DNA of 30,012 nucleotides from a virus. This document shows, piece by piece, positions 39 to 29,974 of the stretch. The notes below the pieces were generated by a model that was not told the origin of the DNA, ran no database searches, and saw only the letters and a program-made list of their open reading frames with translations. Where the stretch lies: UHGV virus genome UHGV-0120925. One strand, 5' to 3'. The first letter of the stretch is position 1, and each line of letters starts with the position of its first letter. The translations under genes and the position numbers were made by a program.

Positions 39-55
39 ATTTAAGAAAGTGTTCT
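39..55. repeat. Left copy of 17-bp perfect direct repeat ATTTAAGAAAGTGTTCT; candidate att core
   Basis: Identical 17-mer at 29958..29974; the two copies bracket the invertase end and the integrase end. A second shorter similarity (TTAAAGGGCAC at 118..128 vs TTAAGGGCAC near 29993) lies just inside/outside. Confidence 0.4.
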
Positions 56-121
56 AATTTATTAGAATTTTGCACTTAAATCAAAAAGTTACTGACAATT
101 CAACCACCAATCAATAAATTA

Positions 122-156
122 AAGGGCACATTAAAGTACACAATATTTGTGCCCTT
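122..156. terminator. Hairpin with perfect 9-bp inverted repeat (AAGGGCACA / TGTGCCCTT) and 17-nt loop, downstream of the invertase gene; possibly bidirectional
   Basis: Stem 122..130 pairs with 148..156; T-rich run follows on the plus strand and an AT-rich run on the minus strand. Loop contains GTACACA, the motif repeated next to int. Confidence 0.4.
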
Positions 157-175
157 CTCTGTTTCTTTCCCGTTA

Positions 176-724
176 TCAGCTAGCTGGAAACTTTTTATAC
201 AGAGTTGAGAGCCCTACTCCATACGTTTTTGATACGCTTTGTCGTGATTCACCGGTTGCCATCCGCTCCCCCATTTCCCGCCATTGCTCATCCGTGAACT
301 TAGGCCTGCGACCACCAACTCGCCATTTTGCCCTGGCTACGGCCAGCCCTGCTAAGGTACGTTCGCTATTAAGATCAGATTCATATTGTGCTGCGGAAAG
401 GATGTTACGAAAGTTATAGCGGCCGCTGGCTGTTTTGAGATCCACGCCATCGGTAATACTGCGGAAGTTGATACCCTTTTCCTGTAACTGCTGGAACATC
501 AACAGCGCATGCAGAACGTTGCGGCCTATCCTGTCCAGCTTCCAGACCACCAGTTCATCCCCCGGCTGCATAGTGGTGATCAGCCGCTTCAGTACCGGAC
601 GATTAGATTTTCTCCCGCTTGCATGCTCTTCAAAAATGTGATCACATCCTGATAACTCAAGGGCAGAGCGCTGAAGTTCAGTATCCTGATGGTTTGTAGA
701 TACTCGGGCATAGCCGTAAATCAT
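176..724 (-). CDS. Serine recombinase, DNA invertase of the Hin/Gin/Cin/Pin family
   Basis: Translation from ATG 724 reads MIYGYARVSTNHQD...LVVWKLDRIGR...ERTLAGLAVARA...GVGLSTLYKKFPAS, matching the N-terminal catalytic serine region and C-terminal HTH of Hin/Pin. RBS AGGAGA upstream. The longer track ORF from 769 is an upstream extension. Confidence 0.92.
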   Translation of the reverse strand: MIYGYARVSTNHQDTELQRSALELSGCDHIFEEHASGRKSNRPVLKRLITTMQPGDELVVWKLDRIGRNVLHALLMFQQLQEKGINFRSITDGVDLKTASGRYNFRNILSAAQYESDLNSERTLAGLAVARAKWRVGGRRPKFTDEQWREMGERMATGESRQSVSKTYGVGLSTLYKKFPAS

Positions 725-779
725 GGGATTTCTCCTGTTATGAAAACAGGAGAAACGGCGAAGCATCACCAGATTTTTG

Positions 780-1586
780 ATGGTTATAAAAAAGGTCGGT
801 TTGGGAAGTGCAGCTATTCTTGATTCTGGGGCAGGACTGAATCAGGTGCTTACATCAACGAATGATGGCACTAAAAGTTTTGGGTTAGGAGCAACGTATC
901 CATCTGTCAGCACTAATGGCCAAGTGGCTACAGATTCAACGGGGTTTTACAGACAAAATAATACAACGGGCTCCAATTTCTTTGGGCATTGGGGGGCTGG
1001 GGTTGGGATTATGTATAGCTCCCCAACTAAATTTAATATTTTCGTCAGGCAAGATGGCAAAATTTATTTCAATAAAGTTTCATCTGGATCAGAAGACTGG
1101 AGAGCTATAGCCAAGACAACACTTAACACGACTGTCGATAGCAATGGTTTCCTTAAAACGGCCTCACCCGTCGTTAAGATTTTCAGCAGCGGTAGATGTG
1201 AAACTAATGAAGAATCGGAAGGTTGTACTGTAACTCGCATGAAAACTGGAGAGTATCTGATCGAGGGCTGCATGGGAATGAACTCAGATGCTGCCTGGGG
1301 AGGTGTTGATGGTGGGTTTGTTATCCCTAAAGATCGCAATGGGCAGGCATTAATATGGCTTGACTACGAGGTAAATGCCGACGGGTCAGTGCTCGTGAAA
1401 ACATTCCACCGGGAATACCCGACAGCACCGATATTTGCGAGGAACTCACGGGAAGGTTTAGTAGATGGTGAACCGGCCGATATTCCGGCCGATCAGTTTG
1501 TCAGTGTCCGGGTAGAGATGCCGCAAAACAGTATCTGGAATCAGCGTGTGGCTATGGATGAAGTTCCTGATTTATCCGCTGATTAA
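780..1586 (+). CDS. Alternative tail-fibre C-terminal cassette, silent in this orientation
   Basis: No RBS before ATG 780. Begins VIKKVGLGS, paralleling ARKNLGLGD in the expressed fibre; C-terminus FVSVRVEMPQNSIWNQR parallels SWIDVRLDMPDDSAFNQR. Converges on and overlaps the expressed cassette by 35 bp. Confidence 0.7.
   Translation: MVIKKVGLGSAAILDSGAGLNQVLTSTNDGTKSFGLGATYPSVSTNGQVATDSTGFYRQNNTTGSNFFGHWGAGVGIMYSSPTKFNIFVRQDGKIYFNKVSSGSEDWRAIAKTTLNTTVDSNGFLKTASPVVKIFSSGRCETNEESEGCTVTRMKTGEYLIEGCMGMNSDAAWGGVDGGFVIPKDRNGQALIWLDYEVNADGSVLVKTFHREYPTAPIFARNSREGLVDGEPADIPADQFVSVRVEMPQNSIWNQRVAMDEVPDLSAD
784..809. repeat. Inversion crossover site 1 (hix/gix-like), adjacent to the invertase gene
   Basis: Core AAAAAGG-TC-GGTTTGGGA is an imperfect inverted copy of the site at 2342..2367 (15 of 18 core positions identical). 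Lies at the first codons of the silent cassette. Confidence 0.6.
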
Positions 1587-2829
1587 AGGCAGAATCATCT
1601 GGCATATCCAGGCGAACATCGATCCAACTGTTCACCGGCACGTCCATCGGTTCCCCTTTCGTTTTGACGATCTCCACGCCATCGCTCAGCATGTATTTCT
1701 GTTTAAACAAGCGGATAGTCAGTCCGCAGCTTTCAGTCTGCTCCGCTTCAACAACACCCATCTCGCCCATGCCGCCAGGGTCCATTGGCGGCAGTATCTG
1801 CCATCCCTCAGAAGCCAGGCCTGCCGAACCGGCGAGCACGTAAACACCGACGTCGAGACGAAAAAGAGTTATTCCCTCCGCCTCAGAGTTCGCCGTTCCA
1901 CAGCCACACCAGGAGAAACCATCCTCTGCAACATCAGCGCGTTCCGTTTCTTCCCGGCTTTTGACAATACGGGCCACTGGTGATGCTGCTTTAAGCGTAC
2001 CATCGGAGGATTTTGTTGTATTAGCAGTTGTATATAATTCTGCTGCAGCCCAGGCGTTAGGGTTCGTAGAGTGTCGACATCGGATGATAGCTCTTGGTGA
2101 CTCGGCGTATGCGTTCAAAATAAACTGACCGCCGACTGCCCCGCCACCTTTAATATTTAATCCGACCTGCCACTGACCCGGGAATACTCCTCCGCCGGAA
2201 GAATTCCAGTAACCGAAACCGGTTGTTTCATTGCCTCCCAGCGGAACCACTGTACTCGCACCATTAAGCGTAATACCCAGCCCGAAAGCACCAACTCCCA
2301 TCACATCATTGCTGCCTGCACCTACACTCCTGGTCGCACTGTCTCCTAAACCGAGGTTTTTGCGAGCGTCTTCTGCCTTCGTTGCCCCGGTCCCGCCGTC
2401 AGCGATTGCAAGCGCACCATTGCTCCCTTTCTGCGCAAGTTTACCGATGCCTGGGATGGTTACGGCGGTGCCGTTGATGGTAACTGTGATGCTTTGGTTT
2501 GCTGAGGTGGTGGCGAACGTCTCCCACGCGCCAATATTCTCGTCATACTCCTTGATAAGCTGCGACATGGCCTGCGCCAGCCCATCAACCGAGATATTGT
2601 CTGATACCAGAATGCCGTACTTCTGGCCGCTCAGCGCCGGAGAAGCTGCAGGCGTTACCGTCATTGACGTGGCGCTATTCACGGATGAAATCTGGAACAT
2701 CTGAACCGGGTTAGACATGACAATAATCGTCTGGCCAGCGCGAACCTGGCTGGCCGGTGCAGTCCAGTTTGTACCGGAGCCGGTTGCGGTATTTCCGTTA
2801 ATAGAGATAGTTCCGGTGCTATAAATCAT
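1552..2829 (-). CDS. Side tail-fibre protein: constant N-terminal part (2355..2829) fused to the currently expressed variable cassette
   Basis: RBS TAGGAG before ATG 2829. GGTGATKAEDARKNLGLG motif is typical of phage tail fibres. Crossover site falls in codons KNLGLG. Confidence 0.85.
   Translation of the reverse strand: MIYSTGTISINGNTATGSGTNWTAPASQVRAGQTIIVMSNPVQMFQISSVNSATSMTVTPAASPALSGQKYGILVSDNISVDGLAQAMSQLIKEYDENIGAWETFATTSANQSITVTINGTAVTIPGIGKLAQKGSNGALAIADGGTGATKAEDARKNLGLGDSATRSVGAGSNDVMGVGAFGLGITLNGASTVVPLGGNETTGFGYWNSSGGGVFPGQWQVGLNIKGGGAVGGQFILNAYAESPRAIIRCRHSTNPNAWAAAELYTTANTTKSSDGTLKAASPVARIVKSREETERADVAEDGFSWCGCGTANSEAEGITLFRLDVGVYVLAGSAGLASEGWQILPPMDPGGMGEMGVVEAEQTESCGLTIRLFKQKYMLSDGVEIVKTKGEPMDVPVNSWIDVRLDMPDDSAFNQRINQELHP
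2342..2367. repeat. Inversion crossover site 2 (hix/gix-like) inside the tail-fibre gene
   Basis: TCTCCTAAACC-GA-GGTTTTTGCGAG has a palindromic core AAACC-GA-GGTTT resembling gix/hix sites. Inverted relative to site 1. Confidence 0.65.
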
Positions 2830-3334: not shown

Positions 3335-3565
3335 ATGAAACTCGCTCTAATTATGCTGCCATTATGTCTGTCCCTCACTGCATGTGGTAGTGGCCTGAAT
3401 ACCGGTAAACCGAATTCCGGCGTTATCCCAAAACCCTTGGATTGGGATAACGGTTCTTTAATTTATGATACCGAAAAGCTTCCAATGACTGGGCAATGGT
3501 GCCATGAGATTGATCATGAATACCGACGAATTGGTTCACCTTCAAACTGTGTAGCTAACTACTAA
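3335..3565 (+). CDS. Small secreted lipoprotein (moron), predicted outer-membrane localised
   Basis: MKLALIMLPLCLSLTAC has a signal peptide and lipobox L-T-A-C, with Gly at +2. RBS AAGGAG, AT-rich upstream region, opposite strand to the flanking tail genes, terminator immediately downstream. Confidence 0.75.
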   Translation: MKLALIMLPLCLSLTACGSGLNTGKPNSGVIPKPLDWDNGSLIYDTEKLPMTGQWCHEIDHEYRRIGSPSNCVANY

Positions 3566-3571
3566 AAGAAA

Positions 3572-3598
3572 CCCCCCGCGCTAAGCGTGGTTGTTTTT
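3572..3598. terminator. Rho-independent terminator hairpin shared by the lipoprotein gene (plus) and J (minus)
   Basis: CCGCGC-TAA-GCGTGG stem (one G-U pair) followed by TTGTTTTT on the plus strand; the complement gives a U-rich tail after the J stop. Confidence 0.55.
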
Positions 3599-6500
3599 AT
3601 CCTGAGAATGAACCAGAACCGCGCGACACAATGACGGTCGGTGAATTTATATAAGCCCCCATACTATTTTGAGCGGATACCTTAATTTTAACTGTAACGG
3701 CACTACTGGTTACAGGTGATGAGTGCATTACAAGACGCTCGTTGCCGTCTATAGAAAGTTTTTTTTCTGAACCGTCAATGTTTATCGTGCAGCCACCAAA
3801 ACCTTTAACGTTTGCCATAACGCAGATATGTCTTCTATGTGCTGCACTTGATGTGTCATTGTATGTAATTGTTTTTTCGAGTACGCCATCATTTAACCTG
3901 CTAACGTCAGATCCTGTGTACATATTCGCAACGTCTCCCACAAAACTGGTAGCTTCCACAGTACCCGTGAATTTACCTCTTGTTGCTTGTATCTCACCAG
4001 TAAAGCTACCGCCACTAGCATATACTACACCTCTGACGGTCACATTGTTGAATTCAGCATCTCCAGCTTTATTCAACTTCCAACCAGCAGAACCAGCTGC
4101 ATAGTTGTTGGACTGGATATAGTTGCCGATTTTGGCGTTCTCAATGGTGCCGTCCTGGATGAAGCTGGCCCGGATGAATGTCTGCCCGTTCTGGATCACG
4201 AACGGCAAAGCTACGCCGTTACCGGCAGCTGTCGTGACTGCGAAGCGGTCAGCCAGGAAGATGACCTGTGACTGCATGCCGGACGGCGTATTCTCCACGC
4301 CGATCCCCATCCCTGCGGCGTAATACTGACCATTGCTGGAGACACCAACCTTGATGCTGTACATCGCCTTCAGATCACCGTTAACGTTCGCTATGGCCTC
4401 AGCGTTGGTGGTGATCGCAGAAGTATGTCCATTTACGGTCGCCGTGATGCTGTTTACCTGCGTGGCCATAGCCTGCTGGTAATCCGAAAACGTCTGGTTC
4501 AGGCTGTTGATGGAAGCCTTATTGCCGTTCACGTCAGTCTGCAAACTCAGCAGCGAACGCGCCGTTGCCTCCTTCTCGTTGACGATCACCTCATCAATGC
4601 GGTCCAGCTGCGCGCTGTTACCGGCGACGGATGCAGACAGCGTTTTGCGCGCCGCCACCTGCGCCAGGTTGCCCTGAATAATCGCGATGGCAGAGTTCTT
4701 CACTCCTCCCGTCATACCGTCCACAGACACGCTGATGTTATCGATGCGCTGGCCCAGCGCGGTATCAGCCGTCGCCACTGTCTGCTCAAGCTTGCTCAGA
4801 GAAGAAGACACATCTCCGACCGTGCTCGACAGGTTTGTAACGCTGGTCTGAACCTTCCCGATATCCTGGGCGTTTTTGGCGATATCTTTCGCTTGCTGCT
4901 CCAGCTCGTCGGCATGGTTTTTGATTTCGTCAGCCATGCCAGCAATTTTTTCATTGCTGTCCACTGCGCTCTCAATCAGATCTTTAAACGTATCGGAGTC
5001 TTTAATTTCCTCCAGAATCACATCTGTGATATCGGAAACATCGATGCTGGCCTGTCCTCGCACCCATTCTGTGTACCCTGATTCGTTGCCGCTGCGGTCC
5101 ACCAGCTGCGCGCGGTACCAGAAAATCTGCCCAGCCTTTAATCCCATCTGCTGATATTTACGCTGTGGGTATGGCACATCGGCCAGCAATATCGCATCAC
5201 CATCAGTACCGGTCAGGCTGTACTGAATTTCCGTCTTCAGCGTGTCGTCGGTATTCGCCGGGAATCCCCAGTTCAGCTCGATGCCGAAAACCACATTTTC
5301 AGAAGCGATGAAGCCAACCGGTTTCGGCGGATTGCCCACTTTACCCGTAAGATTTACTTCTGATGATGTCGCCCATACTGATGAAACGTCGCTGGCGTTC
5401 ACCGCCCTGACACGGACCAGATAGCGACCCGAGTAGATACCCTGCACTTCAAAGCCGAGAGAAGACGTTCGGGGCACACTAATCCAGTTGCCGCTGTCAC
5501 GCCGCCATTCCGCCTCGTACGCAACTGCACCCTGAACAGAATCCCAGGCAACGCGCATAGTGGTAATCGCAATGTTCTGGTTAACCGTAGAGTAACTGTC
5601 TACGACAATATTTCCTGGGGGAGCCTGAACCCCCGGTGGAATGACACTGACTGGCCGCTCGTCCAGTCTTGCGCCGGTATCAACAGCGGAATAGATATCA
5701 GGGTTGTAAGTCGTCCCGGTGACCTCGAAAGTACCGTCGTTGTTGTCCCGCGTTCCCGTAACACGGAAAAGCGCTATAAACAGATCGTCAGAGTCCACAC
5801 CCCAGTTACATTCAGCCTCCGGCGTTTCGCTGTAGGGTGTGGTGACAGTGACTGTGTTTCCGTTAACGGCCTGGACGGTTCTGGCCTGAGCTGTGCCTGA
5901 CGGAAGATTCAAAAACAGCCTGTTACCGGCTTTCACATCAGCAGCGCGATCGAGGGTTATGTTGCGGCCGTTAACCGCACTCACCCTGCCGCCGATAGTT
6001 CTTCCGGCCAGCTCGTTAGCAGCCACGCCGATCACCTCACCAACAGGGGGGACGTCCATGCCTGTGCTGAAGGTCACCACCTCGCCGATACCGTTGGTAA
6101 GCAGCGCCCAGCGCCCCCGCCGGTTTGCCTCTGACTGCCTGGTGCAGCCGATCGCAGTCATTTCGAGCTGACGATAATCGAAACGCATGGCCAGATCGCT
6201 ATCGTAAACAGGCTCAGGCGTATCTTTGTAGTGGTTGGCAGGGTCTGACCAGTTCACCAGCGCGGCAGTGTTTCGGGTGGTTTCACTCGGGTCCGCAAAG
6301 GTAAATTTACCCTCAACTACGCTGGCGTGGTTATAGATATGCCACACATCGCGGGGCATATCAGCCAGGACATACATCTTATTGTCACCCCAGTACGTCA
6401 TGCCGCGAAATATACCCGCCAGATCACGAAGTACGGTCCAGGCGTCATTACGGTCCTGGATATAAACGTTGCAACGAAAACGAGGCTCCGTCCCGCTGCC

Positions 6501-7493
6501 GCCCTTGCCGTCTGGTACCAGTTGATCGCAATACTGGGCGATGCGATAAAGTTCCCATTTGTCTATCTGAGTCGCATCGATTCTTTGACCCAGCCCGAAG
6601 CGCTCGTTCAGAATGATGTCGTAATAAATCCAGGCAGGGTTATCCGTCCACGCCCATTTAAATACGCCCTCCCATGTACCAGAATAAGTGCGGGTTTCGG
6701 GATCATAAGTATCAGGTACACGGATGATTCGCCCTTTCGGATTACACACAACCTGAGGAATGCCATTAGGGAACTGCTTTGCGTCAAACTCTACATACAG
6801 CAGCGCTGTGTTAACGTAGCGAAGTTTGGCGTCAATAATTTCAGTAACGGCCACAACGCGCATGGTGTCGACGATATTCACGCTCGTGGAATCCGGTGTG
6901 ATTCTGCGAACCCGCAACTGCCATCCAGTCGAGGCTTTCGGAAGATTGACGCGGTGACTGCGCTCATAAAGCGACGTGGTTTTGTCATCAACAGCACCGT
7001 TAACCACCGTTTCATACGGCCCGCCATCGACCGACAGATCGATAGCATACTCAACGCGGGTGCCGACTTTATCGCCGTTGTTTTTCTGGAGTAAAAGAGT
7101 TGGCCATCCCAGGCGAATTCGCAGCGCAGAGAGCTGCGTGTTGGATACCGCGCGCACGTACGGCACAGCCTGTTTCAGCTCATATGAAACCTGAAGTTCG
7201 TTTTCAATGCCCGGAAAGCCCTGAATGTAATCCTGGTCCTGAGTACCGGAACGGAACTCGTATTTTACATTATTGAAATTGTAACTTCCGTCGGCGTTCT
7301 GGAGAGGCGTGTATGAAGATGAGTCACCAAGGAAAATATTTTTACCATCAAGCCCACCGGCGAACTCCCCCTCCCCAAGAGCAATAAGCACTTTTGCCCT
7401 GGCAATGGACTGAATGCTGTCCGGTGCCTCAACAGGCGTTCGGGTCTGATTGCTGCCACCTTTGCCGCGGCCTTTGATGATTGTCGTCGTCAT
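3597..7493 (-). CDS. J: Central tail fibre / host specificity protein J
   Basis: 1298 aa. Strong similarity to lambda J in the region ...NTALLYVEFDAKQF...YSGTWEGVFKWAW...DKWELYRIAQYCDQLVPDG.... Position after I matches lambda order. Confidence 0.93.
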   Translation of the reverse strand: MTTTIIKGRGKGGSNQTRTPVEAPDSIQSIARAKVLIALGEGEFAGGLDGKNIFLGDSSSYTPLQNADGSYNFNNVKYEFRSGTQDQDYIQGFPGIENELQVSYELKQAVPYVRAVSNTQLSALRIRLGWPTLLLQKNNGDKVGTRVEYAIDLSVDGGPYETVVNGAVDDKTTSLYERSHRVNLPKASTGWQLRVRRITPDSTSVNIVDTMRVVAVTEIIDAKLRYVNTALLYVEFDAKQFPNGIPQVVCNPKGRIIRVPDTYDPETRTYSGTWEGVFKWAWTDNPAWIYYDIILNERFGLGQRIDATQIDKWELYRIAQYCDQLVPDGKGGSGTEPRFRCNVYIQDRNDAWTVLRDLAGIFRGMTYWGDNKMYVLADMPRDVWHIYNHASVVEGKFTFADPSETTRNTAALVNWSDPANHYKDTPEPVYDSDLAMRFDYRQLEMTAIGCTRQSEANRRGRWALLTNGIGEVVTFSTGMDVPPVGEVIGVAANELAGRTIGGRVSAVNGRNITLDRAADVKAGNRLFLNLPSGTAQARTVQAVNGNTVTVTTPYSETPEAECNWGVDSDDLFIALFRVTGTRDNNDGTFEVTGTTYNPDIYSAVDTGARLDERPVSVIPPGVQAPPGNIVVDSYSTVNQNIAITTMRVAWDSVQGAVAYEAEWRRDSGNWISVPRTSSLGFEVQGIYSGRYLVRVRAVNASDVSSVWATSSEVNLTGKVGNPPKPVGFIASENVVFGIELNWGFPANTDDTLKTEIQYSLTGTDGDAILLADVPYPQRKYQQMGLKAGQIFWYRAQLVDRSGNESGYTEWVRGQASIDVSDITDVILEEIKDSDTFKDLIESAVDSNEKIAGMADEIKNHADELEQQAKDIAKNAQDIGKVQTSVTNLSSTVGDVSSSLSKLEQTVATADTALGQRIDNISVSVDGMTGGVKNSAIAIIQGNLAQVAARKTLSASVAGNSAQLDRIDEVIVNEKEATARSLLSLQTDVNGNKASINSLNQTFSDYQQAMATQVNSITATVNGHTSAITTNAEAIANVNGDLKAMYSIKVGVSSNGQYYAAGMGIGVENTPSGMQSQVIFLADRFAVTTAAGNGVALPFVIQNGQTFIRASFIQDGTIENAKIGNYIQSNNYAAGSAGWKLNKAGDAEFNNVTVRGVVYASGGSFTGEIQATRGKFTGTVEATSFVGDVANMYTGSDVSRLNDGVLEKTITYNDTSSAAHRRHICVMANVKGFGGCTINIDGSEKKLSIDGNERLVMHSSPVTSSAVTVKIKVSAQNSMGAYINSPTVIVSRGSGSFSG

Positions 7494-7503
7494 ATCGCGT
7501 CCA

Positions 7504-7528
7504 TAAAAAAAGCCACCGTTAGGTGGCT
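7504..7528 (-). terminator. Strong intrinsic terminator between I and J
   Basis: On the minus strand AGCCACC-UAAC-GGUGGCU is followed by six U residues, ending 10 nt before the J start codon. Confidence 0.55.
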
Positions 7529-7546
7529 TACAGTGGGTGGTTTGGT

Positions 7547-8131
7547 TTATTGCTGATCTTCTGCATATATCCCGGCGGAGATAATAGCGCCGCCTATTTC
7601 TCGCTGACCATAAAGCAGGGGAACGGGATTACCGGAAGCTGTCGTATTAACGGGTCCACCAAACGCATAGGAAGGTTTGTTATCAGGATCTTGCCGCATT
7701 CGCAGACCTGAGACCTGAGGAGAGAGCATTTGCACTACACCGCCAACGGCCATCGCGGCACCTACGGAAAACATTAGGTTACTTGCTGCAATACTAACTC
7801 CTGGCATCCATATGGCCGCAGCCACCAAAGCCGTTCCGAGCAATGCCTGGAAAACTCCCGCTCTTTTGCTTCCCCTTATTACAGGGATTATTCTCAGTTC
7901 ATCCCCTGGGCCCAGGAGCTCAAACTCTTCGTGTCCGATATTGCGGCGATCCCGGAAAATAACAAAATCCAGTCCCTTTGCCCGAGCTTCACGCAGATAA
8001 GCATCAAAGCCGTCAATGGTGTTAGAAAGCGCCCTGAACACTTCGCTGGCAGACGTTAGTGCGCGGCGATGTGTCCTGCCAAATCGCTGAGCCATTGAAC
8101 CACTGAGTTTAATGACGGTTTTTCTTTCCAT
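7547..8131 (-). CDS. I: Tail assembly protein I
   Basis: Position after K with a 1-nt stop/start overlap at 8131. Gly/Ala-rich hydrophobic C-terminal half typical of lambda gpI. Confidence 0.8.
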   Translation of the reverse strand: MERKTVIKLSGSMAQRFGRTHRRALTSASEVFRALSNTIDGFDAYLREARAKGLDFVIFRDRRNIGHEEFELLGPGDELRIIPVIRGSKRAGVFQALLGTALVAAAIWMPGVSIAASNLMFSVGAAMAVGGVVQMLSPQVSGLRMRQDPDNKPSYAFGGPVNTTASGNPVPLLYGQREIGGAIISAGIYAEDQQ

Positions 8132-8841: not shown

Positions 8842-8843
8842 GA

Positions 8844-9602: not shown

Positions 9603-9937
9603 GGATGGTATGCCTGTATGAATGTGCTGCTGAGGGTGTATTTTTTGTTGCCGTGGGTAGATATCTGGAAGGATTCCGCGCGCCATAAACATGAAGGCTC
9701 AAGCGGCGGCTTCCAGATAAATGACTTCCACCCGGCATGTCTGTTGAGAAAGTTTTTAATGGCCTGAATGTAAGCCTCGTCACCGGTAAAGCTCACGCTC
9801 CACTGAGGTGTTACCGGGTTGATACCGTCTCCGGCCACCTGCGCATAGCCATCGCCAAACTGTGCCTTTCGGGTACGAAAATTTGTATCAACCTGAGAGG
9901 CAACCTTTGGGCACCAGCTGAAGGTTTCGACTGCCAT
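9599..9937 (-). CDS. M: Minor tail protein M
   Basis: Similar to lambda M (FGDGY.Q, GGWKSF.W.PP). Start at ATG 9937 with RBS AGGGGG, directly after the tape-measure stop. Confidence 0.85.
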   Translation of the reverse strand: MAVETFSWCPKVASQVDTNFRTRKAQFGDGYAQVAGDGINPVTPQWSVSFTGDEAYIQAIKNFLNRHAGWKSFIWKPPLEPSCLWRAESFQISTHGNKKYTLSSTFIQAYHP

Positions 9938-9939
9938 GG

Positions 9940-13425: not shown

Positions 13426-13482
13426 AACGCCTCCTTTTCTTAAGGAAAGAGCGTATCGCCACATTGATGACATGTGAAGCAA

Positions 13483-16362: not shown

Positions 16363-16367
16363 CAGAA

Positions 16368-17576: not shown

Positions 17577-17589
17577 AATTAACTCCTGA

Positions 17590-19644: not shown

Positions 19645-19654
19645 AACTGCCTCT

Positions 19655-21412: not shown

Positions 21413-21909
21413 CAGTCCCTCGAATTAAGAAATTGACTTAACAGATCATCATCGTCTGGTTTGTCTTTACTGACCTTAGACCTGCTGGAAGGCGTCATAC
21501 CAAACTCCGCTAACATCGCGCGAAGTCGCTTCCAGGCATCAGCTTTCATCATGGCTGCCGGATGCGGCTTGATCATGCGTATTTCACGCTCTTTCCCTTC
21601 ATCAGCATCATCATCGCTGTATACCGCATAGGTATAACCTTCCCGATCCAGCGTTTCACAATGATGGCGGTATTCCGTATATGCCTCTACCAGCAACTCC
21701 AGAGCCCTGGCATCCAGCTGAGATATGACGCCAATGGCATCAAGTTCTTCGGCCATCCGCTTAAACCAGTACTTCCCCTGCTTGTCGAAATGCTTGGGAA
21801 CTGGGGGGACCCCTTTAGGTGGCTGCGGCTCGTTTTTGTTGATTGGTCGTTTGGAAGGGTTACCCCTCACCAAACGCAGATGGGTAGGGGTTTTCGGCGG
21901 TCCTGACAT
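21412..21909 (-). CDS. Terminase small subunit (P27 family)
   Basis: RBS AGGAG before ATG 21909. 165 aa with a basic N-terminus and acidic C-terminus. First gene of the minus-strand late operon. Confidence 0.82.
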   Translation of the reverse strand: MSGPPKTPTHLRLVRGNPSKRPINKNEPQPPKGVPPVPKHFDKQGKYWFKRMAEELDAIGVISQLDARALELLVEAYTEYRHHCETLDREGYTYAVYSDDDADEGKEREIRMIKPHPAAMMKADAWKRLRAMLAEFGMTPSSRSKVSKDKPDDDDLLSQFLNSRD

Positions 21910-22443
21910 AATCGAAAACTCCTATTAATCATCGGCTGTGGGACCCCAAAAAAAGTTTTCTAACCTGCGGCGATGTGAAGAAAGGCTAGGCGGCGGTCCT
22001 TTTGGCGCCCGGTTACAGGGATTTGACCTCCCCCTCCCCTCCACATCCGTTGATGGTAATCATTATCATTTGAAGCGTTCACGCCCTGTTTTCGAGCGGT
22101 GGCAAGGCCAGCACAGGCTTTCAAGGTTCGAATCATCATCGGTACACGTAAACGTGCTGTATCACCGGGTGCGATCCGGTCGGTGAGAGAGTATCCCCGC
22201 GCGAGAGCGAGAACGGCGTGAGAACGGGCAACACTGGCAGGGAGTTGGCGCTGACCAATACAGGGAATGTTATGGGATGTGGTGAAGGGTTCATGGACGG
22301 GAATATGTCGCACGTAAAGCGGCGAGGCCCGAGGAGCTATTGCCGAAGATAAGTAGGCCGAATCGGGTCGAAATGGGTCTCCCACCTACCACAGCACCAA
22401 AGCATTTCTCCCGCATCAGCGGGTAACTAAGTGGAGAGTAAGT
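21910..22443. promoter_or_regulatory. Non-coding divergent control region between the late (minus) and early-left (plus) operons; likely holds promoters and the packaging site
   Basis: About 530 bp with no RBS-supported ORF. GC-rich, with short direct repeats (GAGAACGG twice at 22207..22226). Exact promoter and cos/pac positions cannot be fixed from sequence alone. Confidence 0.4.
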
Positions 22444-22632
22444 ATGCACAAGTGTCAATTCTGTGGGTACTTTCTGGCATCTGAAGAGATGCAGAGAATA
22501 TCTGTAAACATGGTTGGCAGGCCTTACAACATCTGCATTCCATGCTCAGAAAAGTACAAAAAGAAAGGCCTGTGGGATTCGGCAAAAAACGATATCGACT
22601 GGAAAGCACTTCCATGCGTCGATGAGACATAA
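22444..22632 (+). CDS. Small zinc-ribbon protein (CxxC...CxxC), unknown function
   Basis: RBS GGAGAG. 62 aa with Cys pairs at residues 4/7 and 31/34. First gene of the plus-strand early operon. Confidence 0.6.
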   Translation: MHKCQFCGYFLASEEMQRISVNMVGRPYNICIPCSEKYKKKGLWDSAKNDIDWKALPCVDET

Positions 22633-22665
22633 CCGCATCAGCGGGTAACGACAGAGGGTAAGGGG

Positions 22666-22962
22666 ATGATCGACGACATCAAGCGCATCGACTCAATGAT
22701 AAATGCGCTTCGCAATATGAAACAGGACATCAAGCGTCAGCAGAAACTAAGTGAAATAAACAGTTTAGACCTGTCGCCGAAGCAAGCTCAAAAGCGCAAT
22801 GCCGATGCTGACTGGATTGCGATGGAACAGATTAAGCGTCGGCATGAGCTGCACGCTCTGTCTGTTGAGCTTGGGTTCGCTGAGCGCCGGGAAAGTTATG
22901 CTCCATTTGAATTAACTGACGGGTGGCACCGATTCGACCACAAGCCGCGCGAACCTCAATAG
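22666..22962 (+). CDS. Hypothetical protein (98 aa)
   Basis: RBS AAGGGG. Preceded at fixed spacing by the repeated 17-nt motif. Terminator follows. Confidence 0.55.
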   Translation: MIDDIKRIDSMINALRNMKQDIKRQQKLSEINSLDLSPKQAQKRNADADWIAMEQIKRRHELHALSVELGFAERRESYAPFELTDGWHRFDHKPREPQ

Positions 22963-23890: not shown

Positions 23891-24030
23891 GCGAAAGCCC
23901 ACCGAAGTGGGCCCGCCATGTCCGGCCTCACCGACCAAAGTTACACCGGAAACAACATTAAAACCAAAGTTAACCCAATGGGCGCTATCAATGGTCCGGG
24001 GATTCTAACACCCAAAAATGAGGATCTCAC

Positions 24031-26937
24031 ATGGAATTCTTTAATGTGGTTAAAGCCACTCAGAAATCCGGAAAGCAAGATGCAGTGGTCTGGTTCACTG
24101 CTAAAACCGAGGCTCGCGCCAATCTGATGCTGGATGTTGCGCTGGAAGATGCAGGTATCGAAACAGGTCGGGGTAAGGACTACGCCAAACCGATTCGCAC
24201 TGATTTCCCAGTTGTCGACGGCCTGCCGAAAGAAGGTGAAGTTGATTTTACCTGGTGTGATCGCTACGAGCTTCATGACGATGGGCGCACCTGGCTGCCA
24301 AAAGTCACAGCTGAAAACTCTGACGAGAAAACGGCTCAGACCGTTGATAGTCACATAACTACTGAGTCAACGCTGTCAGAAACCGCTGGCATCACGCTGG
24401 ACGAACACGACGACGACTCAACCCTCTACCCGGTAGTGCAGATGCCGTTTCGTAAGCAACTGCTTTCCCAGTTCACCGCCGACGAACTGCGCCACCACGT
24501 AACCCATGAAGAGTACGAAGCTATCGGCGCGCTGGAGATGGACACTGATAACAGTTACGTCCAGAACTTGCTGTTAGCTGCTGAGAACTGCCCGGAAGTG
24601 AAGGGTTACGACACCAAAGACCTGTGGCGTTACACCGATGCCATTCGCAAAGTGTTCAGCCAGGACAAGCGTCACGAACTCGCGCTGGTACTCCGTTTCA
24701 CCAGAATGTGGGCGGCGACTGATTACATTGACCGTGGCATCCTGGCGCGTGAATGGGCCGCCGGTAATCGCATCAGTAGTGTGCAGCGTACTGATTCCGG
24801 CACTAATGCCGACGGCGGTTACGTCACTGACCGTGGACCTGAGGCACACCACACACTGGACACTCTCGATTTAGAGATTGCGTGTGCCCTTCTGCCTATG
24901 GACTTCAACCACTTCGAGATCCCGGGCAGCATTCTTCGTCGCGCTAAAGAAATCGTGACCAAAAAAGAAGAACCATGGAAATCATGGAGCAACATCCTGC
25001 GCAATCAGCCAGGCGTTCTGGGTGTTAACCGCACGGCTATTTTTAACCTGGTACGTATCGCACCGGAAAATATTCATTTAACTCCTGTCGCTCACCTGGA
25101 ATTTGTTAACCAGACCATGACAGCCGCGTTCAATTCCGCGGTCGAGTTATTGCCGTTGCATGAAGCTGAACCCGCAGCACAGGAAATTCCCCAACCTGAA
25201 GGTAAGGAGTCTCCGCGCAAATCCTTCTGCACTCACGAAGAGAACCTGCAACGCGTGCGTGAAGAAGGAGCACGCCGCCGCGCAGAGGAAGCGGCAGCAC
25301 AACCGCAGAAAGTCGAACAAGAACTGGTTAAAAATGTCGGCAACGGAATATTCGACGTTACGGCTTTGCTGCAGAACTCAGCAACTCATGGCACGAAAAA
25401 GGCTACGGAGACCACCAGCAATGTGCAGGTTCAAGAAACTGTCAGTGATGAAAAACAAGCTGGTGATGAAGTACAGCCAGGCGAAAGCAGTCTGGAGTCT
25501 GGTGAAGAGTCAGATACCAGCCAGAAGGACGATGTAGACCAGAATACGGATTCTGTCGCCAAAAATAGCGATTCTGTAAGCCAAACCGAACCAGTTGCAA
25601 CACAAACCGAGCCAGAAGCGCAATCTGACGAACCAGCTGTTGTTTATCCCGCTTATTTCGAGCCAGGCCGCTATGAAGGGCTGCCAAACGAGGTTTACCA
25701 CGCCGCCAACGGCATCAGCTCAACCCAGGTGAAAGATGCGCGCGTTTCGCTGATGTACTTCAATGCGCGCCACGTAGAGAAAACCATCGTCAAAGAGCGC
25801 TCAGCGGTGCTGGACATGGGCAACTTGGTGCATGCGCTGGCGTTGCAGCCTGAACTACTGGACGCAGAATTCAGCGTTGAACCGGTGATCCCTGAAGGCG
25901 CATTCACAACGGCCGCGACCCTGCGCGCCTTTATCGATGAGCACAATGCCAGCCTGCCGGCGCTGCTGTCTGCCGACGACATCAAGGTGTTACTGGAAGA
26001 GTACAACGCCACCCTGCCGCCGCAGGTTCCGCTTGGCGCTAACCTGGAAGAAACGGCACAGAACTATATGGCGCTGCCAGCTGACTTCCAGCGTATTGAT
26101 GGTGACCAGAAGCAGACGGCGACGGCAATGAAGGCATGCATTAAAGAGTACAACGCCACCCTGCCGCCGCCGGTTAAAACCAGCGGCAGCCGTGACGCGC
26201 TGCTGGAGCAGTTGGCAATCATCAACCCTGACCTTGTGGCTCAGGAAGCACAGAAACCGGCACCACTGAAAGTGTCCGGTACCAAAGCAGACATGATCCA
26301 GGCCGTGAAGGCAGTCAAACCAGATGCCGTATTTGCCGACGAACTGCTGGATGCCTGGCGCGATAACCCGGAAGGAAAAGTGCTGGTCACCCGCCAGCAG
26401 CTGAGCACCGCGCTGAATATTCAAAAAGCGCTTCTGGCACACCCGACCGCCGGCATGCTGCTGACCCACCCTAGCCGAGCCGTTGAGGTGAGCTACTTTG
26501 GTTTTGACGAGGAGACGGGCTTGGAAGTTCGTGTGCGCCCTGACCTTGAGATCGACCTGGATGGCGTGCGTATAGGTGCAGACCTGAAAACCATCAGCAT
26601 GTGGAATGTTAAGCAGGAAAGCCTGCGCGCCAGGCTACACCGGGAAATTATTGAACGTGATTATCACCTGAGCGCGGCTATGTACTGCGAAACCGCAGCG
26701 CTGGATCAGTTCTTCTGGATTTTCGTCAACAAAGACGAGAACTACCACTGGATCGCCATCATCGAGGCATCCGCTGAACTACTGGAGCTGGGTATGCTCG
26801 AGTACCGCAAAGCGATGCGCAATATCGCAACCGGATTCGACACAGGTGAATGGCCAGCGCCAATCACTGCTGACTACACCGACGAACTGAACGACTTCGA
26901 CCTGCGCCGCCTTGAAGCGCTGCGTACTCAGGCATAA
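24031..26937 (+). CDS. recE: RecE-like exonuclease VIII (C-terminal PD-(D/E)XK nuclease domain) with long N-terminal extension
   Basis: 968 aa immediately upstream of recT. C-terminal region ...YFEPGRYEGLPNEVYHAANGISSTQ...DLEIDLDGVRIGADLKT... is consistent with a RecE/YqaJ-type nuclease. Central acidic low-complexity stretch. Confidence 0.8.
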   Translation: MEFFNVVKATQKSGKQDAVVWFTAKTEARANLMLDVALEDAGIETGRGKDYAKPIRTDFPVVDGLPKEGEVDFTWCDRYELHDDGRTWLPKVTAENSDEKTAQTVDSHITTESTLSETAGITLDEHDDDSTLYPVVQMPFRKQLLSQFTADELRHHVTHEEYEAIGALEMDTDNSYVQNLLLAAENCPEVKGYDTKDLWRYTDAIRKVFSQDKRHELALVLRFTRMWAATDYIDRGILAREWAAGNRISSVQRTDSGTNADGGYVTDRGPEAHHTLDTLDLEIACALLPMDFNHFEIPGSILRRAKEIVTKKEEPWKSWSNILRNQPGVLGVNRTAIFNLVRIAPENIHLTPVAHLEFVNQTMTAAFNSAVELLPLHEAEPAAQEIPQPEGKESPRKSFCTHEENLQRVREEGARRRAEEAAAQPQKVEQELVKNVGNGIFDVTALLQNSATHGTKKATETTSNVQVQETVSDEKQAGDEVQPGESSLESGEESDTSQKDDVDQNTDSVAKNSDSVSQTEPVATQTEPEAQSDEPAVVYPAYFEPGRYEGLPNEVYHAANGISSTQVKDARVSLMYFNARHVEKTIVKERSAVLDMGNLVHALALQPELLDAEFSVEPVIPEGAFTTAATLRAFIDEHNASLPALLSADDIKVLLEEYNATLPPQVPLGANLEETAQNYMALPADFQRIDGDQKQTATAMKACIKEYNATLPPPVKTSGSRDALLEQLAIINPDLVAQEAQKPAPLKVSGTKADMIQAVKAVKPDAVFADELLDAWRDNPEGKVLVTRQQLSTALNIQKALLAHPTAGMLLTHPSRAVEVSYFGFDEETGLEVRVRPDLEIDLDGVRIGADLKTISMWNVKQESLRARLHREIIERDYHLSAAMYCETAALDQFFWIFVNKDENYHWIAIIEASAELLELGMLEYRKAMRNIATGFDTGEWPAPITADYTDELNDFDLRRLEALRTQA

Positions 26938-26942
26938 GGGGA

Positions 26943-28061
26943 ATGATGATGGAAAACACGAATATCGTAACCGCTGAACAGCAGACTCCAAACACGATCT
27001 CAGCCAGCAATGCCATTTTCAACGTGCAGGCTTTAACCCAGCTTCAGTCTGTCGCCGGGTTGATGGCACAGGCAGCCGTAACGGTGCCTGAGCACCTCCG
27101 CGGCAATCCGGCAGACTGCATGGCCATCATCATGCAGGCGATGCAGTGGGGTATGAACCCTTACGCCGTGGCGCAAAAGACGCACCTGGTTAACGGTGTC
27201 CTGGGATACGAAGCGCAACTGGTTAATGCGGTGATCTCCAGCTCAAACGCCATCGTTGGCCGCTTTCACTATGAGTACGAGGGCGACTGGTCGAAATGTG
27301 CCAGCAGCCGCGAGATAACCGTTAAAAAGCCTGCGAAAGGTGGCGGGACGTACGACAAGAAAGAAATGGTACGCGGTTGGGAAAGTGCTGATGAACAAGG
27401 ACTGTCGGTACGGGTAGGTGCCGTTATTCGCGGTGAAAGTGATATCACCTGGGGAGAGCCTGTTTTACTCTCCAGCGTAATCACACGTAATTCTCCACTT
27501 TGGGTATCAAACCCGAAACAGCAGATCGCTTATCTGGCACTCAAATACTGGGCGCGCCTATATTGCCCTGCAGTTGTTCTTGGTGTGTACACCCCTGATG
27601 AGATTGAACAGCGCACAGAAAAAGAGATCAACCCAACGCCGCAACGCGTTAGCCTGGCTGATATCTCAGGTGACACCGTCACAACCACGCAAAGCGCACA
27701 GGAATCGTCGGTAAATGTCGACTCTCTTGCCGATGATTTCCGCGAACGCATCGAATCTGCTCAGGACGTGGATAGCACCAAATCGCTGCGTGCCGACATT
27801 GAAACGGCGAAAGCTACGCTGGGATCCGCACTATTCACCGAGCTGAAAAACAAAGCCGTAAAGCGTTATTACCTAGTGGATGCACGCAACAAGGTTGAGG
27901 AGGCTATTAAATCCCTGCCCCAGCCCGACGAGCCGCATGCAGCCGAACGGTTCGCTGAAGCCGAGCGCATGCTTACATCTTCAAAGCGTCACTTAGGCGA
28001 TGAACTGCACGATCAATTCAGCATCACCCTGGCGGATATGAAACCGGAATACGTGGCCTGA
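26943..28061 (+). CDS. recT: RecT single-strand annealing recombinase
   Basis: RBS AAGGGG. Region ...CMAIIMQAMQWGMNPYAVAQKTHLVNGVLGYEAQ... matches the RecT family. Paired with the upstream RecE-like gene. Confidence 0.9.
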   Translation: MMMENTNIVTAEQQTPNTISASNAIFNVQALTQLQSVAGLMAQAAVTVPEHLRGNPADCMAIIMQAMQWGMNPYAVAQKTHLVNGVLGYEAQLVNAVISSSNAIVGRFHYEYEGDWSKCASSREITVKKPAKGGGTYDKKEMVRGWESADEQGLSVRVGAVIRGESDITWGEPVLLSSVITRNSPLWVSNPKQQIAYLALKYWARLYCPAVVLGVYTPDEIEQRTEKEINPTPQRVSLADISGDTVTTTQSAQESSVNVDSLADDFRERIESAQDVDSTKSLRADIETAKATLGSALFTELKNKAVKRYYLVDARNKVEEAIKSLPQPDEPHAAERFAEAERMLTSSKRHLGDELHDQFSITLADMKPEYVA

Positions 28062-28099
28062 CGAGACCGGGAGGGGTAACCCTCCCTCAAGGAGATTAT

Positions 28100-28342
28100 A
28101 TGCGACTGATCAATCGAGGAAGTAAGCAATCACCTTTAGCTCGCCAAGCATGCGACATCGCGCTGGCAGCTCACTTGCAAACATATGGCGACTATGGGCG
28201 AAGCAAGATGAAAGAGACTTATACGGTGAAGGTTGAAGGCGTGAAAGTCTGGGTGGAGGTGGTGAACCGAAAGGCGAGCTACGTGGCCACAGCGATGACC
28301 GGCATGCGCCGTCTCCGCTCCCTGCCCGGGCAGGTTGGTTGA
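28100..28342 (+). CDS. Hypothetical protein (80 aa)
   Basis: RBS AAGGAG before ATG 28100. Preceded by the stable hairpin GGGAGGG-GTAA-CCCTCCC (28069..28086). Confidence 0.5.
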   Translation: MRLINRGSKQSPLARQACDIALAAHLQTYGDYGRSKMKETYTVKVEGVKVWVEVVNRKASYVATAMTGMRRLRSLPGQVG

Positions 28343-28383
28343 AAAAGATTTTGAATGGCCCGAACGGGCAACTGGAGAGAGCT

Positions 28384-28581
28384 ATGGATGATATTTTGGT
28401 AACGTCAGACCTGACCAGTCGCTACAAAATTTCACGCAAAACCCTTTGGTCATGGCAAAGTGCAGACACAATGCCTCGGGGCTTCGTATGCCCGTTCCCA
28501 CCCCCTGACTGGCCCGGCAACCCTAACCGCTGGCGCTCTGAGTCAATCAAAGAGTGGGAGGATAAAAAGAAGATAAATTAA
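28384..28581 (+). CDS. xis: Excisionase / AlpA-like DNA-binding protein
   Basis: Start at ATG 28384 with RBS GGAGAG; the track ORF from 28339 begins with TTG. Pattern ...[12 protein letters not shown]...PRGFVCPFP... fits the AlpA/Xis winged-helix family. Converges on the int 3' end. Confidence 0.6.
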
Positions 28582-29771
28582 CTGAAGGGCTCTCCGATGA
28601 TCTCTTCAAGATGGCTCTGCCAAACGCGGAGCCAGTGTTTCTGATCATCGATATAGTCATGAAGGTTGTAATGCGCCATAACCCCCACCATCTGATGCCC
28701 GAGCAGCTTTTCAATTACGTGCGGCGGGCAACCTAACTCAGAGAGATTTGTGGCTATCGTCCGCCTCATATCATGAAGCGACCACTCTGCCATACCTGTT
28801 CCATTCCAAATAGAACGGGCGTAATTGGATGCCACAGGTGAATGAACGGGCGAATCTTTGATCCCGCCATCAATTTTACGTTGTGAAGTCACCAGGTGAT
28901 TGGTGTTTATTTTCTTGAGGTGATTTCTGACCAGGTTAACGGCGGCGTCTGAGAGTCCCCTTCTAATATGTACCCGAGTTTTATAACTGCCCGCAGGCAC
29001 GACCCACTCATTATCATCCAATCGAAACCATGATCTCTCACTAAGTCGAATCTCAGCCGTACGGCATCCGGTAAGCATAATAAATTTCACCAGGAAAACG
29101 GACTCTATCGACATATGGCTTTTCAACCACTGATAGATTTTGCGCAGATCGTCATCGTCCATCCTGCGAGTTCTCTTTTTAGGCTTTTGCCCGACATCAG
29201 ATGGCAGTAATCCCTCGAGTGGGTTTGAGGCGATCACACTTCTGTTAACGCAGAACCTAAACGCCCGTTTGCACAGCGAAAGCATGTAATGAGCCATCAC
29301 CCTGCTTTCTATAGAATCGAAGACGTTGATCCAGTGCATTTTCGCTGTGTTATCGACTTTGACATTCTTCATCGGTTCGGCGATATGTTTCTCAAACACC
29401 TGGCGATAGTAATCGACTTTAACTAGCCCGTTAGCGATACAGTGCCTTTCAATCCAGTAATTGAACGCTTCGGCAACGGACATCGCTTCCTGTCGGGTCT
29501 GCTTATCCAGCTTCACCTGCTCTCGCGGATCCAGTCCCTCAGTTAACCAGTTTCTGAATTGTTGGCGACGCTCTCTTGCCTGGGTGATACTCATTGCAGG
29601 ATAATCACCAACATTGAGTTTTACCGCTTTACCGGCCCAGCGATACCGATAGAAAAATGATATTTTTCCGGCCTGGCTGATTCTGGCGTTGAGCCCGTGC
29701 GAATCAGAAATAATCTCGATATCATCTCTTTTCTTGCCGAGCGCCTTCCTGAGCTTTGTGTCGGTGATCAT
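28578..29771 (-). CDS. int: Tyrosine site-specific integrase
   Basis: C-terminal catalytic region with R...HDMRRT...H...Y residues ([30 protein letters not shown]). Start set at ATG 29771 ([10 protein letters not shown]), typical of P4-type integrase N-termini; upstream in-frame codons run through the GTACACA repeats and are probably untranslated. Confidence 0.88.
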
Positions 29772-29776
29772 TGAAT

Positions 29777-29817
29777 GGGTACACATTTTTGTTTTTGGGT
29801 ACACAAAAGTGTACACA
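29777..29817. repeat. Three direct repeats of G(G/T)GTACACA just upstream of the integrase start; candidate arm-type or operator sites
   Basis: GGGTACACA at 29777..29785 and 29797..29805, GTGTACACA at 29809..29817 (contains the palindrome GTGTACAC). A single GTACACA also sits in the left-end hairpin loop at 136..142. Confidence 0.4.
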
Positions 29818-29957
29818 AAGTTGCCCACTCAAAGCTACACGCAATGTAACACTAGTTCGCAGAGTGTTATGGTTTACATCCTTGAAAGCCTGCTGGATAA
29901 GGGTTTAGCGTAACAGAACGTTTTTACGCGGAATTGTTCGTAATATGCCAAATGACA

Positions 29958-29974
29958 ATTTAAGAAAGTGTTCT
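29958..29974. repeat. Right copy of the 17-bp perfect direct repeat; candidate att core
   Basis: Identical to 39..55. Located 130 bp beyond the integrase start. Confidence 0.4.

Follow-up and report, generated by a model that had tools for sequence, protein, structure and literature searches.

Phage lambda integrates at the gal-bio locus by means of a system that comprises Int, Xis and IHF, a 15-bp core and arm-type sites. The attachment site of phage phi80 was reportedly described by Leong et al. (1985, J Biol Chem 260:4468; cited in PMC13449921). The att80 repeats at yciI are already known and belong to textbook biology: the phi80 attB, 'gtgaaaccatttaagaaagtgttctga', is located in the 3' end of yciI (PMC13449921), and the junctions of phi80 prophages at this gene have also been verified by PCR (PMC5727415). 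This attB string contains the 17-mer that is the subject of the present analysis. No published text stating a '17-bp core' for phi80 was found in the literature searched; the core length used here is based on our own alignments and on GenBank features.

We analysed a stretch of viral DNA of 30,012 nucleotides (UHGV-0120925, called the window below), in which a pair of perfect 17-bp direct repeats had been proposed as candidate attL and attR in an initial annotation made from the sequence alone. We conclude, with a probability of about 0.97, that these repeats represent the common core (O) of att80, the phi80 attachment site, and that they result from Int-mediated insertion at the end of yciI. 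The features of the window are reported in table 1.

Table 1. Features of the 30,012-nt window and the evidence for their assignment.
Feature	Position	Strand	Evidence
yciI 3' end (host)	1–57	+	ends ...VAAGVYEHVSVKPFKKVF*; translation, and annotation under the reconstructed empty site
att core copy 1	39–55		yciI-proximal junction: host arm + core + pin-side phage arm
pin-proximal attP arm	56–175		197/200 to phi80; IHF-consensus matches, GTACACA 136–142, hairpin
pin-like serine DNA invertase	176–769	-	PF00239 + PF02796; annotations in relatives
side-tail-fibre ORF	777–1586	+	Phage_tail_C_2 domain
side-tail-fibre ORF	1552–2829	-	Phage_tail_C_2 domain; convergent with 777–1586
HK97/P27-type virion module	3597–21909	-	PHROGs; PGAP names in relatives
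J	3597–7493	-	virion module
tape measure	9940–13206	-	virion module
major capsid	16368–17576	-	virion module
protease, portal	within 3597–21909	-	virion module
TerL	19655–21412	-	virion module
TerS	21412–21909	-	virion module
HNH endonuclease remnant (last 80 nt)	22066–22145	-	left side of deletion junction
phi80-type nutL leader	22143–22427	+	99.3% to JX871397 32807–33091; right side of deletion junction
N-like antiterminator ORF, 98 aa	22666–22962	+	at the position of phi80 N
recE	24031–26937	+	domain and PHROGs profile matches; annotation of relatives
recT	26943–28061	+	domain and PHROGs profile matches; annotation of relatives
xis, excisionase, 65 aa	28384–28581	+	65/65 identical to phi80 Xis; annotation
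int, tyrosine integrase	28578–29771	-	397/397 identical to phi80 Int; PF13356 + PF00589
int-proximal attP arm	29772–29957		186/186 identical to phi80; GTACACA x3
att core copy 2	29958–29974		kch-proximal junction: int-side phage arm + core + host arm
yciI–kch intergenic host DNA	29975–30012	+	38/38 versus E. coli attB downstream; start of hairpin

The core repeats

The sequence ATTTAAGAAAGTGTTCT was found exactly twice on the + strand in a search of the whole window (39–55 and 29958–29974), and no further copy is present in the window even with up to two mismatches, which bears out the earlier statement that the 17-mer occurs only at these two places. Shuffled sequences contained on average 0.01 matches and none of 100 shuffles carried two or more copies. 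The identity between the copies covers exactly 17 nt and can be extended to 20 nt at 95% (ACC/ACA + core). One other perfect 17-nt direct repeat is present in the window, at 22411 and 22633. The element together with one core copy corresponds to 39–29957 or 56–29974, i.e. 29,919 bp, and the exact prophage boundaries are thereby fixed. By the lambda convention, attL is the att copy adjoining int; the right-hand copy would then be attL and the left-hand copy attR.

Additional similarity had also been reported between the flanks of the two copies (TTAAAGGGCAC versus TTAAGGGCAC), and this part of the initial annotation did not hold: the resemblance is at chance level and comes down to one exact 8-mer, AAGGGCAC, at unequal offsets from the core (at 122 and 29994, respectively 66 and 19 nt past the end of the core). 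By our own estimate, about 2.4 matches of 8 nt are expected between the two 400-nt ends, and about six are seen outside the core. We read the two copies of AAGGGCAC as the 5' halves of two different hairpins, one in the phage arm (AAGGGCAC...GTGCCCTT, 122–129/149–156) and one in the host flank (GCACGGTT...AACCGTG), the latter of which we take to be the yciI terminator.

The host site

Comparison with an uninterrupted host locus had been suggested as a check, and public sequences provide it: positions 1–55 joined to 29975–30012 are 100% identical to the intact 3' end of E. coli yciI, and both host arms match the E. coli attB at 38 of 38 positions. The host was identified from just 93 nt, because the window includes only 38 nt of host DNA per side. 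Among 5,426 complete E. coli genomes, 5,272 contain the reconstructed empty site at a coverage of 80% or more, and it maps inside yciI; attB thus lies at the 3' end of this gene, between tonB and kch. Of the same 5,426 genomes, 174 contain the right junction of the window and 150 the left one; the prophages at the yciI site, present in about 3 per cent of E. coli genomes, are varied.

The yciI gene remains intact after insertion, since its stop codon, TGA in the empty site, is replaced by a phage-supplied TAA with the frame kept (55–57, the T coming from the core and AA from phage DNA). A tRNA or tmRNA target was considered and rejected: no such gene is present in the window, and the target is the 3' end of a protein-coding gene. 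The phi80-based CRIM integration vectors use att80 in yciI; a strain with this element therefore has att80 occupied and split.

The phage arms and the recombination genes

The inner flanks of the repeats are those of a phi80-type attP. The phage arms are identical to the phi80 attP at 400 of 400 positions on the int side and at 197 of 200 on the pin side. In a four-way alignment, the left junction is composed of the attB left arm, the core and one attP arm, and the right junction of the other attP arm, the core and the attB right arm; the core is common to both junctions, to the attP of phi80 and mEpX1 and to the E. coli attB. The circular junction, another check that had been suggested, is available in public sequences: phi80, mEpX1, mEp237 and HK225 join the inner arms of the window through a single 17-mer, annotated as attP. 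Exactly this 17-mer is annotated as attP in the mEpX1 record (JQ182727, 22058–22074), and a 17-bp attP is annotated at the corresponding position in that of mEp237. The 'attP core' feature of JX871397 (24623–24639) overlaps the 17-mer but starts 3 nt later than the block of actual identity (24620–24636). With yciI attB on the outer sides and a phi80-type attP on the inner sides, the proposal that the repeats represent attL and attR is supported.

The cognate recombination genes lie beside att, and their products are identical to those of phi80. The Int protein carries the catalytic domain PF00589 (7.8e-17) with the R-K-H-R-H-Y signature, assigned by motif to R237, K264, H333, R336, H359 and Y368, and an N-terminal arm-binding domain (PF13356, Arm-DNA-bind_3, 1.4e-18, residues 2–87). 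The xis gene is convergent with int and their 3' ends overlap.

GTACACA motifs had been noticed near both ends of the element, and they are indeed enriched beside both cores: the window contains nine copies versus 2.4 expected, a number reached in none of 100 shuffles. Four copies, all on the + strand, are within 180 nt of a core (Poisson P about 2e-7 for at least four in 600 nt), three of them in the int-side arm (29779–29785, 29799–29805 and 29811–29817) and one in the pin-side arm (136–142). They are plausible candidates for the arm-type sites of Int. The arm motif was also examined by comparative footprinting on the sequences of five Citrobacter and Kluyvera relatives whose Int is 81–87% identical. 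It is conserved for the most part, and two of the three copies on the int side do not vary among these relatives; the comparison does not discriminate, because the surrounding sequence is as conserved as the motif. The copy at 29811–29817 overlaps the putative -10 of the int promoter pI, which is annotated in JX871397, and the three int-side repeats lie between this putative -10 and the start of int.

The IHF consensus WATCAANNNNTTR has only two matches in the window, at 79–91 and 109–121, both in the pin-proximal arm, and an IHF site is annotated in the phi80 record JX871397 at the position of the first. As candidate IHF sites, both fit the architecture of such an arm.

Gene content and internal deletion

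Sequence geometry, identities and gene content are direct readings from this analysis. The bracketed element is a mosaic prophage, combining an HK97-like virion module, a pin-like invertase, recET and the phi80 int–xis pair. The N-like ORF belongs to a region in which window positions 22633–22700 match 1769–1836 of a comparison sequence (L006), N starting at 1802 of the latter.

The pin-like invertase likely starts near 724, and the palindrome at 729–755 is the counterpart of 'IR3' in the phi80 record. The invertase and two convergent fibre ORFs are both present in the window. No convincing inverted pair of crossover sites for a Gin/Pin-type invertible tail-fibre segment was found in the window: the search gave only a 14-nt match of 86% (729/1905), whose register does not fit the fibre domains, and an isolated palindrome (3423–3450).

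A deletion junction is located at 22143–22145, where the 3' end of an HNH gene meets the phi80 nutL leader with a 3-nt overlap. On the left side, positions 21800–22145 match the ES5 prophage (L004, 28853–29198), in which the HNH coding sequence occupies 29119–29469, and EC2001 (L008, 8618–8272). On the right side, pL, oL and boxA, which in phi80 lie upstream of the nutL leader, are absent from the window. In comparison with the intact 42-kb relative in ES5, about 11 kb are deleted, with the repressor, pL, replication, Q, lysis and most of HNH; the repressor and operators, replication, Q and lysis functions of an intact inducible lambdoid prophage, and the HNH required for HK97-type packaging, are thus not found in the window. 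What the element retains is all of the long virion ORFs together with recET, Int/Xis and perfect att sites; its own regulation, replication and lysis are all lost. A structured RNA was considered for the ORF-poor region 21910–22430 and rejected: an Rfam search of this region gave nothing credible, and it consists of the HNH remnant and the long phi80 nutL leader.

Judging from its sequence, the element is most likely a defective prophage that excises poorly, since pL was lost with the 11-kb deletion; its att sites are structurally intact. In phi80, pL is situated upstream of the early-left genes, xis among them, and from its absence here we infer that xis expression is lost. Read-through transcription or another promoter may still serve xis. 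The internal deletion represents ordinary prophage decay.

Integration at att80 and alternative explanations

In the proposed mechanism, a phi80-type tyrosine integrase, probably with host IHF, would have recombined the phage attP with the chromosomal attB, situated at the very end of yciI, the 17 bp being common to both. One copy of the core would be left at each prophage–host junction, because the exchange is conservative and takes place inside the shared 17 bp, and each junction combines an arm of host origin with an arm of phage origin. The core provides the last codons of yciI, and the phage arm brings in another stop codon. For excision, the two junctions would have to recombine in the opposite direction, a reaction that requires both Int and Xis. 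We infer the position of strand exchange within the core, the binding of Int to GTACACA and the binding of IHF. Nothing in the sequence contradicts the att80 explanation.

The chances are about equal for and against a more complex history, in which the att80 core is real but the present element, instead of being freshly inserted by Int, entered an older att80 prophage through homologous recombination or replacement. The junctions would then be ancestral, and the body would have formed later as a mosaic or through deletion. The mosaic body, with its HK97-like virion, phi80 int–xis–att and recET like that of mEp237, is consistent with such a history, as is the variety of the prophages found at this site in about 3 per cent of E. 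coli genomes. The deletion itself must post-date integration, because it would make the phage non-viable. The identity of the repeats would nevertheless be unchanged, and an original Int-mediated insertion would still be needed to form the junctions.

It is improbable that the element depends on a helper, a co-resident lambdoid phage providing the missing functions for its excision and packaging, or that it has been domesticated as a source of recET or tail fibres, and just as improbable, as a separate matter, that Int represses itself via GTACACA. If helper dependence or domestication were true, the deletion derivative would be more than a decaying relic.

We give next to no weight to a transposase that duplicated its target by a staggered cut and fill-in, with no pre-existing shared core: flanking direct repeats are also a hallmark of transposition, but in the genomes of the free phages the 17-mer already stands between these two arms, neither terminal inverted repeats nor a transposase are present, and the adjacent gene encodes a tyrosine integrase identical to that of phi80. 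A chance match, the bracketing being an artefact of where the window was cut, is practically negligible: an exact 17-mer pair in 30 kb is not astronomically rare (about 0.03 pairs expected by our own estimate) and the repeat at 22411/22633 offers a precedent, but no shuffle yielded two copies, a real host gene is restored when the outer flanks are joined, and a real annotated attP when the inner ones are. The repeats are thus best explained as the att80 core. The integration system is phi80 Int/Xis at att80, and beyond correct annotation this has little significance.

Comparison with known phages

The att region shares with that of lambda the common logic of a heterobivalent tyrosine integrase, a short shared core and an excisionase conferring directionality, together with long attP arms that carry a repeated motif and IHF-consensus sites (here, matches to the consensus). 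The two systems differ in the sequence of the core, in its length (17 versus 15 bp) and in the locus, yciI instead of gal-bio. Moreover, int here has a promoter of its own, reads away from att and is convergent with xis, and the integrase is of the Arm-DNA-bind_3 (PF13356) type.

The prophage of E. coli ES5 (NZ_CM184343.1) is an intact 42-kb element at the same yciI site, with the same order of modules (pin, tail fibres, J to TerS, then N, kil, recET and int); over 81% of the first 25 kb, the identity is 95.8%. It keeps the HNH, lysis, Q, nin, O/P and cro genes and a repressor of the LexA family (L004, 29.1–40.8 kb), all of which are deleted in the window.

The lambdoid coliphages mEpX1, mEp237 and HK225 have an attP annotated as similar to that of phi80. 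In mEpX1 both ends of the window are joined through one copy of the 17-mer, and mEp237 is 99.7% identical to the window over 25000–29978, a segment that includes recE, recT, xis, int and att. These three are complete viable phages of 41–45 kb, whereas the element in the window has 29.9 kb and is devoid of the early-right and late regulatory regions.

Phage phi80 (Lula; JX871397, X04051), known as a prophage at att80 in yciI of E. coli K-12, shares with the element the core, the int-side arm and nearly all of the pin-side arm, Int, Xis, attB and the convergent arrangement of xis and int. In contrast to phi80, the virion module in the window is of the HK97/P27 type, recET is found in place of phi80 exo/bet, and the whole block of immunity, replication, Q and lysis is missing.

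The attachment-site repeats and the empty site in yciI

The 17-mer ATTTAAGAAAGTGTTCT occurs on the + strand near each end of the 30,012-nt window (see table), and no third copy was found there with up to two mismatches allowed. In 100 dinucleotide-preserving shuffles the mean number of matches was 0.01 and two copies were never found (0/100), confirming the perfect and unique direct repeats of the initial annotation. The two copies have different neighbouring bases (C/A before, A/G after), which limits the exact identity to 17 nt; with relaxed matching it can be extended to 20 nt at 95%.

The proposal that these repeats are candidate attL and attR sites is supported by both pairs of flanks, the outer ones rebuilding the end of yciI and the inner ones a phage attP. 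Window positions 1–55 joined to 29975–30012 through one core give a 93-mer, which is 100% identical to the uninterrupted yciI 3' end in many E. coli chromosomes; all of the 38 + 38 host bases match. At 80% coverage or more, the 93-mer is found in 5,272 of the 5,426 complete E. coli genomes, in every case at yciI. In strain 120899, for example, the 17-mer is found where yciI ends, at its final codons, with tonB and kch on either side. The first 57 nt of the window translate as ...VAAGVYEHVSVKPFKKVF*, matching the empty site. yciI thus survives the insertion undisrupted: its TGA stop is replaced by TAA, whose AA is supplied by the phage arm.

The K-12 gene order is kch-yciI-tonB, so the window runs opposite to the standard E. 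coli map. Since lambda usage gives the name attL to the junction next to int, the right-hand core is attL here and the left-hand core attR; these labels depend on orientation.

Table. Features of the window, from left to right.
Feature	Position	Strand	Remarks
Left-hand core	39–55	+	attR
IHF-consensus match	79–91		IHF site annotated in phi80
IHF-consensus match	109–121
GTACACA, one copy	81 nt after left-hand core		pin-side arm
pin-like serine invertase	176–769	-
Palindrome TTTCTCCTGTTATGAAAACAGGAGAAA	729–755		27 nt, just upstream of likely invertase start
Two convergent tail-fibre ORFs	after invertase
Palindrome TTATCCCAAAACCCTTGGATTGGGATAA	3423–3450		separate from TTTCTCCTGTTATGAAAACAGGAGAAA
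HK97/P27-type virion module, J to TerS		-	complete
HNH endonuclease gene remnant	22066–22145		last 80 nt
phi80 nutL leader homology	22143–22427	+
Repeat CCGCATCAGCGGGTAAC	22411–22427, 22633–22649		perfect, direct, 17 nt
62-aa CxxC...CxxC ORF	22444–22632
N-like ORF, kil- and ydaE-like small ORFs		+
isrB match (RF01386)	23892–23989	-	Hfq-binding sRNA
recE, recT, DUF4060	after kil-/ydaE-like ORFs	+
Xis ORF	28384–28581	+	65/65 identical to phi80 Xis
Int ORF	28578–29771	-	last in order; 397/397 identical to phi80 Int; N-terminal arm-DNA-binding PF13356, tyrosine-recombinase catalytic PF00589
GTACACA, three copies	179, 159, 147 nt before right-hand core		int-side arm
Right-hand core	29958–29974	+	attL

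The attP site of free phages

Over its last 5 kb on the right, the window shares 99.7% identity with phage mEp237 and 96.7% with HK225; in the int-xis-att region, identity to phi80 and mEpX1 is 99.5–99.6%. In these four free phages, the two inner ends of the window are contiguous through a single copy of the core, which is the junction expected of the excised form. A four-way alignment resolves the left junction into the attB left arm, the core and one attP arm, and the right junction into the other attP arm, the core and the attB right arm. Compared with phi80 attP, the int-side arm (phage DNA before the right core) is identical at 400/400 positions and the pin-side arm (after the left core) at 197/200.

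In the mEpX1 record precisely this 17-mer is labelled attP, the older phi80 record X04051 begins its 'attP core region' at base 1 of the 17-mer, and in the mEp237 record the equivalent position carries a 17-bp attP feature. The 17-bp 'attP core' of the GenBank phi80 record is 3 nt out of register with the 17-mer that it overlaps: it is placed at 24623–24639 of JX871397.1 (3335–3351 of our extracted locus, L001), and the true attP/attB identity block is 24620–24636.

The published phi80 attB, gtgaaaccatttaagaaagtgttctga, located 'within 3' end of yciI' (PMC13449921), includes the 17-mer. Prophage-yciI junctions of phi80 have been tracked by diagnostic PCR (PMC5727415), and its attP, Int and Xis are a standard integration tool (PMC2532685).

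The right-hand junction (int-side arm, core and host) is complete in 174 and the left-hand junction in 150 of the 5,426 complete E. coli genomes; in the remainder the match ends at the core boundary. By these counts, roughly 3% of the sequenced E. coli have a prophage of some kind at att80.

Integrase and accessory sites

Int has the signature residues R237, K264, H333, R336, H359 and Y368, and xis is convergent with int, as annotated in phi80. A 567-nt contig of an assembly labelled Streptococcus danieliae (NZ_JACBXX010000235.1) codes for an Int fragment with 100% identity to that of phi80, most likely contamination from E. coli or phi80.

The GTACACA motifs noted near both ends represent a real enrichment: the window has nine copies versus 2.4 expected, a number never reached in shuffles, and four of them adjoin the cores in a single orientation (Poisson P ~2e-7). 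The int-side copies have the int start codon on one side and, on the other, pI, a putative promoter in the phi80 record whose -10 element the third copy overlaps. The IHF consensus WATCAANNNNTTR has only two matches in the whole window. The further flank similarity that had been proposed (TTAAAGGGCAC and TTAAGGGCAC) amounts to one 8-mer at unequal distances from the cores, within chance.

In five Citrobacter and Kluyvera relatives (Int 81–87% identical, at the orthologous position), two of the three int-side copies show no change and the third has two substitutions. The surrounding arm is equally conserved, so this conservation does not single out GTACACA. On sequence grounds, the motifs may reasonably be regarded as arm-type Int-binding sites, with a possible role in int autoregulation.

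The Citrobacter and Kluyvera prophages (L009–L013, at ~2280–2330 of each locus) adjoin a core-like sequence distinct from the E. coli core, e.g. AGAATACTTTTTTAAAT and AAAATACTTTTTTGTAT (int strand), an indication that in each genus the core follows the 3' end of the host's yciI.

Content of the element

The two cores bracket 29.9 kb. The stretch at 176–2829 holds the invertase and, beside it, the two tail-fibre ORFs, which carry the same type of C-terminal domain. This arrangement hints at a host-range segment that can invert, but a search for a second crossover site gave none that was convincing.

The copies of CCGCATCAGCGGGTAAC, a small hairpin with the lead-in to a ribosome-binding site, flank the 62-aa ORF, which is inserted after the nutL leader and ahead of the N-like gene. 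In phi80 there is one copy, without the insert, which is common to HK225 and E. coli G3/10 and KL53. The arrangement resembles that of a 'moron', a small gene cassette whose insertion duplicated the junction.

The Rfam match to isrB, antisense between a 95-aa ORF and recE, scores 38.2 bits, just above the gathering score of 35 (E = 0.0013). A hairpin read by eye (GCCCAC TTCG GTGGGC), followed by TTTCGCTT, falls at its 3' end.

An internal deletion and comparison with known prophages

The intact 42-kb prophage of E. coli ES5 has the same insertion site and gene order. Only ES5 carries, between TerS and N, HNH, holin/lysozyme/Rz, Q, nin genes, O/P, cro and a LexA-family repressor; in all, ~11 kb is missing from the window relative to ES5, pL/oL and boxA included. 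Homology to the TerS-HNH side extends to 22145 and that to the nutL leader begins at 22143. Positions 22143–22145 are thus a clean deletion junction with a 3-nt overlap, at a point upstream of which phi80 has pL, the operators and boxA. This junction is absent from all complete E. coli genomes in the collection, and the deletion looks recent because all long ORFs are intact.

Alone, the element would be incapable of replication, lysis and late transcription. Excision is probably impaired as well, despite intact Int, Xis and both junctions, because xis belongs in phi80 to the early-left block downstream of pL.

The repeats are the long-known attachment site of phi80, reportedly first described by Leong et al. 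(1985, J Biol Chem 260:4468), and present nothing new. Only the stop codon regenerated upon insertion and the internal deletion of this copy are mildly noteworthy.
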